Source: Planctomycetota bacterium
GTDB taxonomy: Bacteria > Planctomycetota > J058 > JARGOJ01
Direction of reading: 5' to 3'
Assembly: GCA_029210225.1 (NCBI GenBank)
Contig: JARGOJ010000031.1
Location: forward strand, 1,841 to 22,015
Length of the DNA stretch: 20,175 nucleotides
The stretch's first letter is position 1. Each line of letters begins with the position of its first letter. This document shows, piece by piece, positions 12,972 through 20,175 of this stretch. A program made the position numbers and the translations under genes. The notes below the pieces were generated by a model. That model was not told the DNA's origin, searched no databases, and worked only from the letters and a program-made list of their open reading frames with translations.

Positions 12972-13297
12972 TTGATACCTGGGACGAGGCGGTTGTGATA
13001 CCTGGGATCATGGGAATCACAAAAATGGGGTCTTATCTGGGTCATAGGAAGAGAATAATGGCGAAGGCATATTGATACCTGGGACCAACAACATCGGGTA
13101 CCTGGGACCAACGATGTTTTATACCTGGGATCGACTTCAACTTGTGTTTGGGTTCCTGAATCCTGGTACCTGGGACCTCGGAGCCTCGGGTCAATTTTGA
13201 TACCTGGGATCGGGGTGACCGAGCGTTTCGTCTTCACTGACGAGCTTTTTATGGACGGACAGCTATGCGTTGATTCTCGCTTCGTTGGTACCTGGGA
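12972..13297 (+). repeat. Array of eight direct repeats of a 12-13-bp motif (G/T)(A/G)TACCTGGGA(C/T)C, plus two degenerate copies, all in one orientation
   Basis: Exact copies at 12972, 12995, 13072, 13095, 13118, 13163, 13197 and 13285. Degenerate copies at 13032 (TATCTGGGTCA) and 13149 (GGTTCCTGAATCC). Start-to-start spacings are 23, 77, 23, 23, 45, 34 and 88 bp. Copies 13072/13095/13118 share the extended unit TACCTGGGACCAAC. Confidence 0.75.
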
Positions 13298-13343
13298 TCG
13301 ATTTGAAGAGTCCTTGGACCCTCAACGAGATGTCTGCTTATTC

Positions 13344-14043: not shown

Positions 14044-14082
14044 AAAAAAAGGATAAAGCGCGCCTGCTTCGAGGCGCGCTTT
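14044..14082 (-). terminator. Intrinsic terminator of the fliA-like gene
   Basis: Perfect 11-bp stem AAAGCGCGCCT / AGGCGCGCTTT with loop GCTTCG (14055-14082). On the minus strand it is followed by AUCC plus U7 (the + strand A7 at 14044-14050). It lies 50 nt past the stop at 14135. Confidence 0.7.
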
Positions 14083-14134: not shown

Positions 14135-14941
14135 TCAGGAGATGAGTTCGTCTCTGCGATCACCGAGTTCCTTCTGAAGACGTTTCACAATTCGAGCATG
14201 AAGTTGGCACACTCTAGACTCACTCAGGTCCAAGATCATACCAATCTCGCGCATTGTGAGCTCTTCAAAGTAGTAGAGCATGACGATCAGGCGTTCTTTC
14301 ATGTTGAGTCGCTTAGAGACGAGCTCCATGAAATCGGTGGACTGGATTTTGTCGATAGGGTCGACTTCTTTTTTGTCGGCAATGATATCGATGGTTTGAA
14401 CGGCTTTTCCACCGTCATCATCGTGCCATTTATCGGAGAGACTCATGATTTGAGTGGCCGTCCCACCGCGAACCAAGGAGTCGAGTTCTTTGAGGCTGAT
14501 GTCAAGGTGCTCGGCGAGCTCTAAATCGTTCGCTTTGCGTCCCAGAATCGTCTCAAGCTCTTGTTGAGCCGCGCCGACCTTGGAGGCTTTTGTGCGAACT
14601 AGGCGAGGCACCCAGTCAGACTGACGGAGGTGGTCGAGAATCGCGCCACGAACGCGGAGAGCACAGTATGTTTTGAACTTCACGGCGCGTTCGATATCGT
14701 ATCCGTCGATCGCATCCATGAGGCCGAAGACGCCGGCGCTAAACAGATCGCCGAGTTCGACGCTTTGTGGTAACTTTGTGAGTAGGCGCTCAGCGCTGTA
14801 TCGGACGACTGGTAAGTAATGCTCGATGAGGCGGTTTCTGATTCCTTCGTCTTTTGTCTTCTTGTATTCTTCCCACAACTCTCTTGGCGCTTCTTTGACT
14901 TTACCCCGTGAACGGCTTGCATCCCTTGTAATAACTGTCAC
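14135..14941 (-). CDS. fliA: Sigma-28-type alternative sigma factor (FliA/WhiG/SigD family), 268 aa
   Basis: Regions 2, 3 and 4 are present: region 2 (DLFSAGVFGLMDAIDGYD..FKTYCALRVRGAILDHLR), region 4 HTH (ERLIVMLYYFEELTMREIGMILDLSESRVCQLHARIVKRLQ). GTG start at 14941 with SD AAAGGGG 9 nt upstream. Confidence 0.85.
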   Translation of the reverse strand: MTVITRDASRSRGKVKEAPRELWEEYKKTKDEGIRNRLIEHYLPVVRYSAERLLTKLPQSVELGDLFSAGVFGLMDAIDGYDIERAVKFKTYCALRVRGAILDHLRQSDWVPRLVRTKASKVGAAQQELETILGRKANDLELAEHLDISLKELDSLVRGGTATQIMSLSDKWHDDDGGKAVQTIDIIADKKEVDPIDKIQSTDFMELVSKRLNMKERLIVMLYYFEELTMREIGMILDLSESRVCQLHARIVKRLQKELGDRRDELIS

Positions 14942-15003
14942 TATTATGACCCCTTTAATTTATGTATTTCAAAATCCCACTGCCCGAGAATTTGGAACAC
15001 CGT

Positions 15004-15033
15004 CATAGACCCCCCTAGAGTCTATGGATAGAC
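15004..15033. promoter_or_regulatory. Operator-like cluster of inverted half-sites 63-92 bp upstream of the fliA-like start
   Basis: CATAGAC-N9-GTCTATG (15004-15026) overlapping GTCTAT-GG-ATAGAC (15020-15033). Three perfect ATAGAC/GTCTAT half-sites plus a degenerate CTAGAG. Confidence 0.4.
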
Positions 15034-15229
15034 GAGCGACTTCACCCAAAGCTCTCTATCTTGTGTCCCTCTCGACAAAAGACACGATAGCAAGAGTTAT
15101 TATTAGAAGCCAAGTCGGAATTAAAGATGTCTCCATAGTTTTTTCCAAAATAGGGATACATTCACAATCCGCCCCTCTCATGTAGACTGTAAAGCAATAT
15201 AAACAATAGACTTAAGATATAGCGAGGGT

Positions 15230-15919
15230 CCTGTATTCAAATTGTCAAGAAAAGAAAAAAGCCCTCAACGATTGTTGACACAAAAGTGCACTTGAGCAAA
15301 AAAGCACATTTTGTAGGGGTCTTGAGAATTAAACAACACCATATAGTAGAAAAACAAGCAAGATCTAGGCTTCCACCAGCTATTTCATGACCGATAAAAC
15401 GATCAAATTTGAGACTAACCTTAGAACATCCTCTCCTCAAAGATACCTAGTTGCAATCAACACACGCTTATGGCGCCAGTATCACACACCACCAAGACAT
15501 GAAAGCTCAAAAAACGACAGACGGAGCGATCCGTGCAAAGCCAATAAACAAGCCAATTCTCGCGTACCTGGGACAAATCGATTCTCCTCGACATCTTCCC
15601 CCCAAAGCATCCACACTCGCTCCCGCCTCACACTTCTCCACCAATCTGCTTCTTGAAAAAATGTCGCACCCCGCTCAAAGCCCCCAAAACCAACTCTCCT
15701 ACACAAGAACAACTCAAGAACGTCGTGTTTCACGCCCCAACATCCTCGCGCCCCAACAACACCGGCGTTAAACCCTAGAAAGAGAAACAAGCTTCCCTAT
15801 CCTTATTTATATAGGCGAAAAAGGTCTCACTACTCTTTACGCCCGCATATATCGATAAGGGACAAAGCGCCTGTCGGTGGCTTCCATTACAATGAAGCTC
15901 CACAAACGCAACATATCCA
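15230..15919 (+). other. About 690 bp of strongly G-depleted, CA-rich non-coding DNA (+ strand) immediately upstream of dnaG; part of a 978-bp non-coding interval (14942-15919)
   Basis: No convincing ORF on either strand; the track ORFs there translate to low-complexity S/P/T/Q/H-rich peptides without SD. The + strand has very few G (runs of C and A, e.g. CCCCCAAAACCAACTCTCCTACACAAGAACAACTCAAGAAC). Confidence 0.5.
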
Positions 15920-17857
15920 GTGCCAGTACCTGTGAAAGAGGTTGCCGTGGGTCGAATACCCCCAGAACAAATCGATTTGATTCGCGAACGCGCCGATATC
16001 GTCGCACTCATCGGTGAACGCCTTCAACTCACTCAAAAAGGTCGGCAATTTTGGGCCTGCTGCCCATTCCACGGCGAAAAAACCGCATCCTTCAGCGTTC
16101 ACCCAGAACGACAGATATACAAATGCTTCGGCTGCCAAAAAGGTGGCAACATCTTCGGCTTCCTTAAAGACTACGAACGCGTCAACTTTCCCGAAGCCGT
16201 CCGCATGGTCGCCGAAACCGTCGGCATCGAAATCAAAGAAGAGAAAAGCACCAAAGCTTCCCAAAAACGGCAAAGCGAAAGAAAAGGACTCCTTGAAGTC
16301 GCCGATGCCGTTTGCCAATACTTCGAAGACCAACTCTGGACCCCAACACTGACTCACGGACGCAAATACCTCAAAGAACGCGGCATCACCAAAGAAAGCG
16401 CCAAAAAGTTCCGCGTCGGACTCGCCCCCCAAGGCTGGGACAACCTGCTGAAATGGGCCGAAAAGAATCGCGTCTCCACAGACTCCCTCGTCAAACTCGG
16501 ACTCCTCGTTCAACGAGAAAAAGACGGCCGAAACCGCTGCTATGACCGATTCCGAGATCGACTCATGTTCCCCATCTCCGACGACCGCGGTCGAGTCATC
16601 GCCTTCGGAGGACGACGCTTCTCCGACGACCCAGAAACTCCCAAATACATAAACTCCTCAGAAGTCCCCGGCCTCTTCGAAAAGCGACGCGTCCTCTACG
16701 GTCTCCACCACACCAAAGAATCCAGAGCCCGACGCCTCATCATTGTTGAAGGATACACCGACGTGATCATGGCCGTCCAAGCCGGCGTGCTAGGCACCGT
16801 CGCCGTACTTGGGACCGCCTTTGGACCCGATCACATTCCCCTCGTTCGTCGCTTCGCCGACCAAGTGATCGTCCTCTTCGACGGCGATGCCGCCGGCCAA
16901 GCAGCCGCTCAACGATCCCTGGGAGCTCTCGTCCCCGTCGACCTCGAAGTCCGCGTCGCCATACTCCAAGGCGCCAAAGACCCATGCGACCTCATCGTCG
17001 AAAAAGGACCCGACGCCCTCAACCAAATCGTTGATACCGCCCCCGAAGTCTTCGACTTCCTCCTCGACTCACTCCAGGATCAAGCCCAACAATCACTCTC
17101 CGCACGAGCCAAAGCCATTGAAGAAATTCTCAAGCTTCTCGCTCCCATGGACCCCATAAGACTCCATCTCCATATTGGACGCTTTGCTCACCGCTTCTCC
17201 ATTCCCGAAGAAGAACTCCGAGAACGCATCAAAGCCGCTCGCAATCCCAATAAAGGGAAAAAATCTAACGACGGACCCGATGGCGACAATCGCTCCAACG
17301 ATCAAAACAGACGGCGCTCATGGACCCCCAAATTCAAAGGCAAAGGCAAAAAAGGCTTTCCACAAAAACCCGACCCCTTCGCGAACAGCCCCTCCCCCAA
17401 ACAATTTAACTTTGGCCGCGGCGCTGAAATGAAAATCCTAGAAGCCCTCCTCGCCGCACCAACCCACATAGCAACTGTCTTCACAATCCTCACTCCTAGA
17501 CACTTCTCCGAAGGCCCCTCACGGAACCTCGCGATCCGGCTCCAAGTCGCTGCCGACCTCGGACAAACAGTCAGCGAAGCCAACCTTTACAATGAACTTG
17601 AAGGCCGAGAACTCGAACTTCTCACATACCTCGGATCGAAAATTCACGAAGGACAACAACGGGAAAAAGACTATGAATCCGAACTCGCTCCAGAAGCATG
17701 CCACCACATCGTGAAAACCCTCCGGAAGCAACAAAGGGAAGAAGTACGTGGCCTCCTTAAAGAAGCCCTCCGTGAAGGTCGGCAAGAAGATGCCCTCGCC
17801 CTAGAAAAAGAACTCGATTCACTATTCCAAGAAATTCAATCTGCAAACAAAAGTTAA
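15920..17857 (+). CDS. dnaG: DNA primase DnaG, 645 aa
   Basis: CHC2 zinc finger (CCPFHGEKTASFSV..YKCFGCQKGGNIFGFL). RNA-polymerase/Toprim core (IVEGYTDVIM, VLFDGDAAGQAAA). C-terminal helicase-binding region after a basic low-complexity linker. GTG at 15920; a GTG at 15947 (MGRIPPEQIDLIRERADIV) is an alternative start. Confidence 0.9.
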   Translation: MPVPVKEVAVGRIPPEQIDLIRERADIVALIGERLQLTQKGRQFWACCPFHGEKTASFSVHPERQIYKCFGCQKGGNIFGFLKDYERVNFPEAVRMVAETVGIEIKEEKSTKASQKRQSERKGLLEVADAVCQYFEDQLWTPTLTHGRKYLKERGITKESAKKFRVGLAPQGWDNLLKWAEKNRVSTDSLVKLGLLVQREKDGRNRCYDRFRDRLMFPISDDRGRVIAFGGRRFSDDPETPKYINSSEVPGLFEKRRVLYGLHHTKESRARRLIIVEGYTDVIMAVQAGVLGTVAVLGTAFGPDHIPLVRRFADQVIVLFDGDAAGQAAAQRSLGALVPVDLEVRVAILQGAKDPCDLIVEKGPDALNQIVDTAPEVFDFLLDSLQDQAQQSLSARAKAIEEILKLLAPMDPIRLHLHIGRFAHRFSIPEEELRERIKAARNPNKGKKSNDGPDGDNRSNDQNRRRSWTPKFKGKGKKGFPQKPDPFANSPSPKQFNFGRGAEMKILEALLAAPTHIATVFTILTPRHFSEGPSRNLAIRLQVAADLGQTVSEANLYNELEGRELELLTYLGSKIHEGQQREKDYESELAPEACHHIVKTLRKQQREEVRGLLKEALREGRQEDALALEKELDSLFQEIQSANKS

Positions 17858-17978: not shown

Positions 17979-18246
17979 TTTTTATAAAGGATTCATTGAA
18001 TTTGGGGCCGTTTCCCTTAAACTCTTCCAACCTTTTTCCGCTCCGAGATGTGTGTTAAGGACAGTTCCCTCAGGTTGAACGTCCGCCATCCGGGACAGAT
18101 GGGATTTGGTCATCCATACTAATTATCTGCGTATTTTTTTCGACGCCCTATATCGATGATCTCTGCAAGCGCGGATTAAACATTGTGGTCAAGGGATACC
18201 CCTTCGATAGTTTCCATGACTATCTCAAGGAAACTCAGGAGTAAGC

Positions 18247-20175
18247 ATGAGCCGTTCGTCGGTCACTGAAACCAAGAAATCTAATACGAAGAAATCTTCA
18301 ACCACAAAAGCGGAGGGCACGGCGAAAACCAAATCCTCCAGCTCCCCAGCGTCAGCAAAGGAAAGCAAAAGCAAAGCCGCACCCAAAAAACGCGCCGCAG
18401 CAAAACCCGCCAGCAAAGCTAAAAAAACACCGGCTAAAAAGAAGGCTCCTGCGAAGAGCGCAGAAAAGGCTGCGGAAGTCGAAACCGCCGATGCGCCAAA
18501 AACCGCTGCCAAGAAAGCTCGGGCGAAAACTAAAAAACCCGCTGCCGCTGCGAAAACAACGAAAAGCCGCGCTAAAGCTAAAAAACCCGCCGCTAAGGGG
18601 AAATCCCAAAAGACTGCTGCCGGTAAGGGCAAAAAAGGGAAGTCAAGTAAGGAAAAGTCTGACTTCAGCGACGAAGAGCTTGATGAAGAGTCCACCCTCA
18701 CCCTCGACGACGAAAGTCTTGATGAAGATGACGACGTCGTCGATCCCGATGGAACCGCAGACGGTGAGGAAGACGAAACCGCTGACGAACTCGACGATGA
18801 AGAACTCAACGAAGACGACGAAGACGACGAAGACGACGATGAAGAGCTCGGCCGAGCTCGAGACGAAGCCTACGAAGAACTCGCCGGGGAATACCACCGC
18901 ACCGTCACCGAGAAGATCGACGACCCGGTTCGCATGTATCTCACTCAAATGGGTGAAATTCCTCTTCTCTCACGTCAAAAAGAACTTGAATACGCCAAGC
19001 GCATCGAAATCTTTCGCAAACGCTTCCGCTACCTCGTATTCTGCTCTCTCGAACAACTCACGCAGGGTGTTGAGATTCTTGAAAATGTCATGCAAGGGCA
19101 GCTCGCCTTTGACCGGACCCTCAAAATTGCGGGAACCGAAGAGACAACGAAAATTGAGCTCACTGAGCGCCTCCCCCATGTCGTCGTCATCCTTCGCAAG
19201 AACCTAGAGCGTGTTCGCGCCCTCTTCGATAAATCACGCGCCAAACTCCGCGCCAAAGAACGAAGAGAGGTCCTCCAACTTCTCAAAGTCAGACGCCGAC
19301 GCACTATTTCTATTCTCGAAGAGTGTGGCGTCCAAATTAAGCTCGTTCGCCCAATGCTCGACGTTCTCCGCGAACACCTTGCCATGATGCGCCGCATCAA
19401 AAAGGACATCGAAGTCGGTGGTACCAGCGGACCTGAAGCCAAAATCTCTGTGGAAAAACTCAAGGCCATTGAAGATCGCCTCGGATTTGGTTTCGAAGAC
19501 TTCAGCAACCACATGCACTACCTCGAAAAGCGCTTCACCGCTTACGAGAAAGCGAAGCGTGACCTCTCCGGAGGAAACCTCCGCTTGGTCGTGTCCATCG
19601 CTAAGAAGTATCGCAACCGTGGTCTCTCCTTCCTCGACCTCATTCAAGAAGGAAACACTGGCCTCATGAAGGCCGTGGAGAAATACGAGTATCGCCGAGG
19701 ATATAAATTCTCGACCTACGCAACATGGTGGATTCGACAAGCGATCACACGATCCATCGCCGACCAGGCCCGCACCATTCGTATTCCCGTCCACATGATC
19801 GAAACCATGTCGAAACTGCGGAATATCTCCAAGAAGCTCGTTCAAGAAATGGGTCGCGAACCCACAATTGAAGAACTAGCCTCGAAGCTTGGTATGCCCG
19901 TGGCCGAGTGTCGGCGAATCATGAAGATCTCAAAGCACCCAATTTCCCTTGACCGTCCTATCGGCGAGAGCGACGACGGTTTCTTTGGTGACTTCATTGA
20001 AGATAAATCGGCCGAATCACCGGTCAACGCCGCCACATACGAAATGCTTAAAGACAAGCTTGAGAAGGTCCTCGAAACCCTGACCTTCCGTGAGCGCGAG
20101 ATCATCAAACTTCGCTATGGAATCGGCGACGGATACACCTACACTCTCGAAGAAGTTGGACGGATCTTCAAGGTC
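18247..20175 (+). CDS. rpoD: Primary sigma factor RpoD (sigma-70), 3'-truncated by the window edge; N-terminal histone-H1-like K/A/P-rich tail and acidic tract precede region 1.2
   Basis: Open frame from the ATG at 18247 (SD GGAG upstream) to the window end (643 codons, no stop). It is absent from the ORF track because it has no stop. Region 1.2 ([29 protein letters not shown]), region 2 ([73 protein letters not shown]), region 3 and the start of region 4 ([27 protein letters not shown]) are present. Confidence 0.9.

Follow-up and report, generated by a model that had tools for sequence, protein, structure and literature searches.

What occupies the long stretch of DNA between a FliA/WhiG-type sigma factor gene and the primase gene dnaG in the genome of an uncultured planctomycete, and why does it contain so little G? 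The locus lies in a 20,175-nucleotide stretch of contig JARGOJ010000031.1 (assembly GCA_029210225.1), which was analysed at its full length and is called the window here. The sigma factor gene (fliA) is on the minus strand and dnaG is on the plus strand; the gap between them (14942-15946, 1,005 bp) is more than twice as long as any other intergenic region in the window and is its most G-poor stretch (15% G). An earlier note, made from the sequence alone, described positions 15230-15919 as a G-depleted non-coding leader and offered three explanations: a CA-rich translational enhancer, a spacer shaped by mutational bias at a skew switch, or a site of dif or other terminus functions.

The best explanation, with a probability of roughly 0.62, is that the gap is a long non-coding control region of two divergent units, conserved within its lineage, in which a drifting spacer at a strand-asymmetry boundary separates two constrained modules. 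It would serve the minus-strand sigma factor gene and the plus-strand pair dnaG-rpoD. The fliA-side part (approximately 420 bp) would comprise a fliA leader, U1, and AT-rich blocks with back-to-back TTGACA hexamers around a small palindrome; a core of 300-370 bp would be free to mutate and to gain or lose bases; and a rigid dnaG-side module of approximately 230 bp would carry a promoter and a 5' untranslated region (UTR) with a Shine-Dalgarno sequence. The depletion of G would be no signal in itself; it would be the neutral composition of the plus strand, which continues through dnaG and rpoD.

The gap is real and slightly longer than first described. Alignment of 12 homologues gives MGRIPPEQI as the N-terminus of DnaG, which sets the start at GTG 15947 behind the Shine-Dalgarno sequence AAAGAGG (15935-15941); the gap without a credible open reading frame (ORF) is 1,005 bp rather than the reported 978 bp, since dnaG starts at 15947 and not at 15920. 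The reported G depletion also stands: 15230-15919 (A.345, C.299, G.154, T.203) ranks among the 0.3% of 690-nt windows with the least G. At a scale of 100 nt, the G minimum of the entire window (9%) falls at approximately 15600, and its G+C minimum (0.38) is at 15151-15450. There is no tRNA anywhere in the window, and neither strand of the gap carries G-quadruplex motifs. The stretch 15230-15919 is not a unit; it joins the end of the fliA-side module, a neutral core and the dnaG-side module.

Relatives for comparison were obtained from protein searches with DnaG (93, 87, 74, 73, 59 and 49-55% identity); their contigs, together with contigs reached via identical FliA proteins, supplied full gaps from four loci (L081, L082, L171 and L172), a partial gap from L169, and distant gaps from L083, L085, L086 and L087. 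The sigma factor gene and dnaG are back to back in every relative recovered, across a gap of 584-1,020 bp (after correction of the start in L083), and the fliA(-)/dnaG(+) synteny is seen in at least five independent assemblies. NCBI, Logan and ENA assemblies are all colinear across the gap, and an assembly artefact hiding a short rpsU-dnaG junction, the alternative that the earlier note had left standing, is rejected. Since the same divergent layout is present in every relative, the gap is an old feature of the lineage. No example was met beyond the lineage: none of the 80 FliA loci fetched from metagenomes, in a scan saturated by distant sigma factors, has dnaG nearby. A scan of GTDB genomes with DnaG found only relatives of 33-44% identity, and nhmmer profiles of the conserved gap blocks have no match in the distant gaps of L083 and L085-L087.

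Conservation within the gap was measured against the four-fold degenerate sites of fliA and dnaG, which are 40-60% identical among the three main lineages and thus near saturation. Three zones can be distinguished. Up to 15360 the distance to fliA is fixed; from 15718 the distance to dnaG is fixed; the core between them takes up all length change. About 575 of the 1,005 bp are under purifying selection, and these parts, overlooked by the earlier note, look like two regulatory modules. The conserved blocks are best taken as putative promoters, operators or leaders.

The fliA-side module is approximately 420 bp long (14942-15360), of fixed length, with 0-1 gaps between lineages. Its most conserved part is U1 (14942-15160 on the minus strand), with an ultraconserved block of 190 bp delimited as 14972-15156 or 14969-15156; U1 is 87-92% identical with 0-1 gaps and thereby exceeds the flanking coding DNA. 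U1 adjoins the fliA start, takes in the Shine-Dalgarno region at approximately 14950-14955 and is retained in a fourth lineage (L169); it is probably the 5' leader of fliA. The minus-strand RNA of U1 folds better than shuffled sequences (z = -2.3), and it is too invariant for covariation to be seen (0 of 57 pairs compensatory). A long-range helix is predicted between 15139-15119 and the fliA Shine-Dalgarno sequence and start codon, both of which it would sequester. A 26-codon ORF in U1, retained in six genomes, was considered as the cause of conservation and rejected. Variable columns are spread 7/7/6 over the codon positions and the four-fold sites are invariant; the constraint is consequently on nucleotides and not on a peptide.

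Between U1 and the next conserved segment is a spacer (var1, 15161-15230) of neutral sequence and fixed length, with 44-47% identity and no gaps. It is followed by the AT-rich blocks A-C (15230-15360; 72-85% identity, no gaps), which keep a fixed distance to fliA. They contain one TTGACA hexamer on each strand, 26 bp apart: TGTCAA at 15243-15248 is the minus-strand copy read from the other side, and the plus-strand copy is at 15275-15280. A TTGACA near the start of the region had been reported at 15273-15278; it is present, two bases further on. The palindrome TCAAC-N4-GTTGA at 15265-15278 keeps its stem while its loop varies (AATC, ATTC, CTTT). The blocks also hold AAAAGCACATTTTGTAGGGG (15300-15319) and CCATATAGTAGAAAAACAAG (15339-15358), and the distant relative L083 has a similar TCAACGAGCGTTG. 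Blocks A-C are candidate back-to-back promoter and operator elements, with outward TTGACA hexamers around the palindrome. As the earlier note had remarked of the plus-strand hexamer, a good -10 is missing: no hexamer is conserved after either TTGACA, and matches in a sigma-70 scan are neither above shuffled sequences nor conserved. Sigma-28 and sigma-54 readings of local motifs were inspected by eye and rejected, as the motifs are not conserved. Consensus folds gave no convincing RNA covariation for blocks A-C on either strand.

The dnaG-side module (15718-15946, plus strand, approximately 230 bp) is 60-77% identical with 1-11 gapped positions. Its elements are GTTTCAC (15727), ATCCTCGC (15742), CGTTAAAC (15766), CTATCCTTATTTATATA (15797-15813), TCGATAAGG (15852), GCGCCTGTCGG (15867) and the Shine-Dalgarno AAAGAGG already mentioned; in three lineages, blocks stand at exactly -220, -150, -96 and -77 from the start codon. 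This proximal stretch of 230 nt is also less skewed than the core (G.19). The module is probably the dnaG promoter and 5' UTR. It has no significant or covarying RNA structure (z = -1.07 for 15715-15960). No significant elements are shared among the upstream regions of dnaG, rpoD and fliA. Separately, ATCCTCGC (15742-15749, at -200) is the complement of the Shine-Dalgarno AAAGAGG at 15935-15941; neither sequence ever varies, and the consensus fold pairs them with each other. This could be a long-range anti-Shine-Dalgarno interaction.

The core (15361-15717) is hypervariable. It is CA-rich on the plus strand (A.33, C.34, G.13, T.19), 44-51% identical with 16-66 gapped positions, and 300-370 bp long; it is rich in insertions and deletions. 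Its divergence equals that of the four-fold sites. Despite this turnover, the core is CA-rich in all five genomes (GC skew -0.26 to -0.43, AT skew +0.21 to +0.35). It thus has the divergence of synonymous sites, tolerates insertions and deletions, and shares the sign of its skew with the four-fold sites of dnaG and rpoD, as is expected of a neutral spacer; the size of the skew, too, is roughly what unconstrained DNA on this strand should have. It would have no sequence-specific role beyond spacing and one 13-nt motif.

The composition of the core is explained by drift under the local strand bias. The plus strand is GT-rich left of the gap and CA-rich from the gap on. In the eight genes that run from thiDE to fliA, four-fold sites have plus-strand GC skews of -0.08 to +0.61; when the same genes are read in sense, the four on the plus strand are near neutral (-0.08 to +0.14) and the four on the minus strand are C-rich (-0.23 to -0.61). 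To the right, dnaG four-fold sites have C.61 and G.07 (skew -0.80) and those of rpoD have a skew of -0.59; in the first 1.3 kb of dnaG in L171 (1-1314), C is.74 and G is.02. Synonymous avoidance of G is stronger in dnaG than in any neighbouring gene.

The sigma factor gene shows how this bias moves. Four-fold sites of fliA have C.46 and G.15 in the window versus C of approximately.2 and G.25-.30 in L081, L082, L171 and L172. Substitutions are directional (41 C>T, 23 A>G) although the proteins are 97-98% identical in L081 and L082 (14135-14941 compared with L081 1051-1857 and L082 4243-5049). It is as if the strand-asymmetry boundary had shifted by one gene, across fliA, among relatives. The flipped composition of fliA, and the contrast between C-rich minus-strand genes and near-neutral plus-strand genes in the left domain, support a bias that follows the DNA strand and not the direction of genes. 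Low G is thus shared across a CA-rich domain that spans at least 5 kb, and it is no property of a leader; the bias itself is probably replication-type strand asymmetry. Among the three options of the earlier note, the mutational-bias spacer at a skew switch has the best support, given the neutral rate of the core, the same but stronger bias at synonymous sites of dnaG and rpoD, and the change of polarity at the gap.

One motif in the core does not drift. The 13-nt near-palindrome consensus GRTACCTGGGAYC has a copy at 15563-15575 (plus strand) that is its sole conserved island; all relatives retain TACCTGGGAC at 15565, and L081 carries two copies 22 nt apart. There are 12 matches to GRTACCTGGGAYC in the window where 0.52 are expected. 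Eight are same-strand copies in the convergent gap between the HtrA and small sigma-like genes (12976-13298), at spacings of 23-88 nt, often 23; further sites are at 2269-2278, 2605-2614 and 15565-15574, and two copies inside thiDE are conserved between genomes. In relatives, GRTACCTGGGAYC is found in L081 (19-250, 2482-2513), L082 (3086-3452) and L173 (11814-11866, 16961-16995, 20681-20778), and in other intergenic regions it forms pairs or triples with copies spaced 22-25 nt apart. It is lineage-specific, as 167 loci from outside the close relatives lack it.

A skew switch of this kind raises the question of replication. The leading strand is usually G-rich. Under this rule, a plus strand with G>C and T>A on the left and C>G and A>T on the right has the polarity of a terminus, and the flip is conserved in at least three genomes, shifting by one gene. 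Replication forks might therefore meet at the gap, perhaps at a lineage-specific dimer-resolution or fork-arrest site; this is unlikely, is compatible with a control region of two divergent units, and would account for a change of bias at this position. The lagging-strand location that dnaG and rpoD would then have is not implausible, as gene-strand bias in Planctomycetes is approximately 50% (PMC11040001). The dif site that had been suggested is not apparent: a search for 28-bp sites (two 11-bp arms, a 6-bp centre and an ATAA-N6-TTATG core) found none at up to three mismatches, a test of low power in a phylum where dif prediction has failed (PMC3025954). The possible second polarity change approximately 13 kb away in the window, the weak skew over 20 kb of the L081 genome, a boundary that is not tied to one sequence, and a context of only 20-45 kb also weigh against a terminus.

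A more specific form of this idea makes the gap the fork-convergence point in a Pirellulales-related lineage, with the core as switch zone and GRTACCTGGGAYC as a new kind of terminus-associated protein-binding site. It invokes the layout of one conserved copy of GRTACCTGGGAYC in the core and eight same-strand copies 2-3 kb away. This is a long shot, but it would matter if true, since canonical dif sites have resisted prediction in Planctomycetes.

The folding properties of the core bear on a second alternative. The plus-strand RNA of 15401-15800 includes the least structured 300-nt stretch of the window, with a minimum free energy (MFE) between -37 and -48 kcal/mol where the mean of the window is -88 (standard deviation 17); the core region is thus approximately three standard deviations less negative. 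The minus-strand RNA folds normally (-86 to -92 kcal/mol) because it is GU-rich and uses G-U pairs. The statement that neither strand can form structure accordingly applies to the plus strand but not to the minus strand. Over 78-nt windows, the median C/G of the core is 2.26 and 64% of windows exceed 2; the C/G maximum of the entire window (5.6 over 78 nt) is at 15573-15650, just downstream of the conserved 13-nt motif.

Sites at which Rho loads (rut sites) are at least 70-80 nt long, have C>G and are unstructured (PMC6407284). If the core is transcribed toward dnaG, its C/G ratios (median 2.26, maximum 5.6) fit this composition, its RNA is the least structured of the window, and its CA-richness is retained in five genomes despite turnover. 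In this scenario dnaG-rpoD would be transcribed from the distal TTGACA (15275) with a leader of approximately 670 nt, and the core would be a rut platform that attenuates transcription and keeps primase low; it might be a functional analogue of the terminator upstream of dnaG in the macromolecular-synthesis (MMS) operon of E. coli. Against it, C>G bias is equal or stronger at neutral sites of adjacent genes, so that no selection is needed to explain that of the core. There is also no usable -10 after the distal TTGACA, the spacing of blocks A-C is fixed to fliA and not to dnaG, and the conserved proximal module suggests a nearby dnaG promoter. Because neutral bias explains the composition and the dnaG-side module looks self-contained, the Rho-loading leader is ranked as a rival and considered doubtful.

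Could a small protein or a structured non-coding RNA be hidden in 15230-15919? The gap contains ORFs of 89, 106 and 102 codons, a gene finder called one 89-aa ORF in L082, and blocks A-C and the dnaG-side module are conserved. Long ORFs are expected here because the plus strand is T-poor and the minus strand A-poor. They are not conserved; six-frame comparison between lineages gives translated similarity in all frames, solely where the DNA is conserved, and the ORFs have no Pfam match at E<=1. Rfam gives no match at the gathering threshold in the whole window and none at E<=1 in 14850-16000. Folding is not beyond that of shuffled sequences for 15230-15946 on the plus strand (z = -0.15) or for 15715-15960. 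In consensus folds, which are weak, the covariation term of RNAalifold is unfavourable for all regions tested; 3-4 pairs survive changes on both sides, and of the 31-43 pairs in each fold, 11-20 are disrupted in one or more sequences. The region thus shows neither an Rfam match nor the combination of folding and compensatory changes that marks known structured RNAs. A hidden gene or RNA is very unlikely, in agreement with the earlier view that a structured non-coding RNA was improbable.

The proposal that an unstructured, CA-rich leader raises ribosome loading on dnaG fares worse still and is highly improbable. The composition and the lack of structure in plus-strand RNA fit, but the core is not adjacent to the gene: it ends at 15717, 230 nt before the start, its sequence is not conserved, and the final 230 nt are less skewed (G.19) and carry a conserved Shine-Dalgarno AAAGAGG. 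Primase is, moreover, normally a low-abundance protein. A replication origin with an inverted skew convention is barely credible: the lowest G+C of the window lies within the gap and divergent genes flank it, but the gap has no DnaA box at up to one mismatch and five at up to two (approximately two expected, and the window-wide count is that of chance), its skew changes in the opposite direction to the one that the usual rule gives for an origin, and the boundary is on the other side of fliA in relatives.

There are a number of discrepancies between the data and a control region with a neutral core. No promoter can be assigned, and the label of promoter or operator is an inference made without a conserved -10 after either TTGACA. 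The extreme C/G ratio beside the one conserved motif of the core could indicate selection on composition rather than drift, and the 13-nt motif is the main element that a control region leaves unexplained. With respect to the strand bias, the dnaG skew (-0.80 to -0.94) exceeds what a simple two-term model of replication plus codon effects provides; raw skew may change polarity a second time, more weakly, near 2 kb, with MurJ four-fold sites slightly positive on the plus strand; and in the L081 genome there is little skew over the 20 kb that lie further to the left. The sequence from the lineage amounts to approximately 45 kb in all, which is too short to see skew on the scale of replichores.

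The genes around the gap were assigned from Pfam matches and translations. From the left, the window holds MurJ (-), ThiD2-ThiE (-), a tandem Usp protein (+), a 938-aa protein with a vault shoulder domain (-), pyruvate dehydrogenase E1 (+), an FHA-Ser/Thr kinase (+), HtrA (+), a small sigma-like protein (-), the FliA/WhiG-type sigma factor (-), and, across the gap, dnaG (+) and rpoD (+). The sigma factor gene (14135-14941, minus strand, GTG start at 14941) encodes 268 aa with Pfam Sigma70 r2/r3/r4 and is divergent from dnaG. Its product is identical to MDF1660749.1, annotated as 'FliA/WhiG family sigma factor, Planctomycetota bacterium'; its closest named relatives are from Pirellulales (54-58% identity). 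DnaG (15947-17857, plus strand, start from the N-terminal alignment) has the Pfam domains Zn_ribbon_DnaG, DNAG_N and Toprim. The primary sigma factor gene rpoD (18248-20175, plus strand) runs off the window end; sigma-70 regions 2-4 are seen in its translation, and its counterpart at the orthologous position of L086 carries the annotations Sigma70_r1_2 through r4.

The same-strand order of dnaG and rpoD, which the earlier note overlooked, is that of the MMS operon. A co-oriented rpsU directly upstream of dnaG is absent; the divergent fliA-type sigma factor gene is there instead. Searches with tblastn found no S21-like sequence in the gap, the window or 173 loci fetched, and none beside dnaG in 80 GTDB Planctomycetota dnaG loci; the queries were E. 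coli and B. subtilis S21 sequences, and the test is a weak one. Within that limit, the reported lack of rpsU holds. A degraded rpsU or other pseudogene in the core was also considered and rejected, as no similarity was seen by Pfam or by tblastn with the same queries.

A second ultraconserved block (18002-18300; 92-100% identity in three lineages) covers the last approximately 250 nt before rpoD and its start ATG at 18248. It has no meaningful match in Rfam and is likely to be an rpoD leader element. RpoD has an N-terminal extension of approximately 230 aa (18248-18940), which is rich in Lys, Ala, Ser and Thr at first and then strongly rich in Asp and Glu; this composition explains the AT skew of up to +0.72 at 18300-18900.

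Two further observations concern the left part of the window. The 938-aa protein (4073-6889, minus strand) has a major-vault-protein shoulder domain (E = 3e-20) and a vault repeat (E = 3.5e-07) and is kept in L173. Approximately 50 nt past the fliA stop codon is a perfect 11-6-11 palindrome, AAAGCGCGCCT-N6-AGGCGCGCTTT (14055-14082). Most simply, this would be a bidirectional intrinsic terminator; it also has the 28-bp 11-6-11 geometry of a Xer site, with no sequence similarity to dif.

The apparent oddity of this locus is mostly explained away: the G-poor 'leader' has the look of neutral DNA on this strand, and a missing rpsU is normal outside the classic operon. What remains is a 1-kb divergent control region, dissected here for two sigma-factor-linked units in an uncultured planctomycete lineage, and its notable features are the leader-like blocks with their ultraconserved sequence, a skew boundary that moves among relatives, and the 13-nt motif with its dispersed copies. 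The leader-like blocks are candidates for new cis-regulatory RNAs or operators. The sharp strand-asymmetry boundary could help to locate replication landmarks in Planctomycetes, where dif and oriC are poorly defined.

The arrangement can be compared with several known systems. As in the E. coli MMS operon (rpsU-dnaG-rpoD) and the Gram-positive dnaG-sigA core, the primary sigma factor gene is next after dnaG. Unlike the E. coli operon, the locus has no rpsU and has a divergent FliA/WhiG-type sigma factor gene across a 1-kb non-coding gap; its dnaG-rpoD spacer also differs, being approximately 390 bp long with an ultraconserved block. In Gram-positive species, too, the region upstream of dnaG departs from the E. 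coli layout (PMC2824700).

The bias resembles replication strand asymmetry in that it is strand-bound, strongest at four-fold sites, shared by neutral non-coding DNA and marked by a sharp change of sign. It differs from usual strand asymmetry in its unusually high magnitude in dnaG (four-fold G 2-7%), in a boundary that differs by one gene among close relatives, and in the possible second switch 13 kb away. Any transcript of the core would be like rut regions of long bacterial 5' leaders in being C-rich, G-poor and unstructured over far more than 80 nt (PMC6407284); unlike in those regions, the composition of the core is explained by local neutral bias.

Compared with typical divergent promoter regions, the gap is several times longer, contains a neutral spacer of 300-370 bp and has no recognisable -10. 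It is nevertheless like divergent promoter regions with shared operators in its basic plan: two genes face outward, a pair of TTGACA hexamers lies 26 bp apart between them, and each module is fixed to its own gene.

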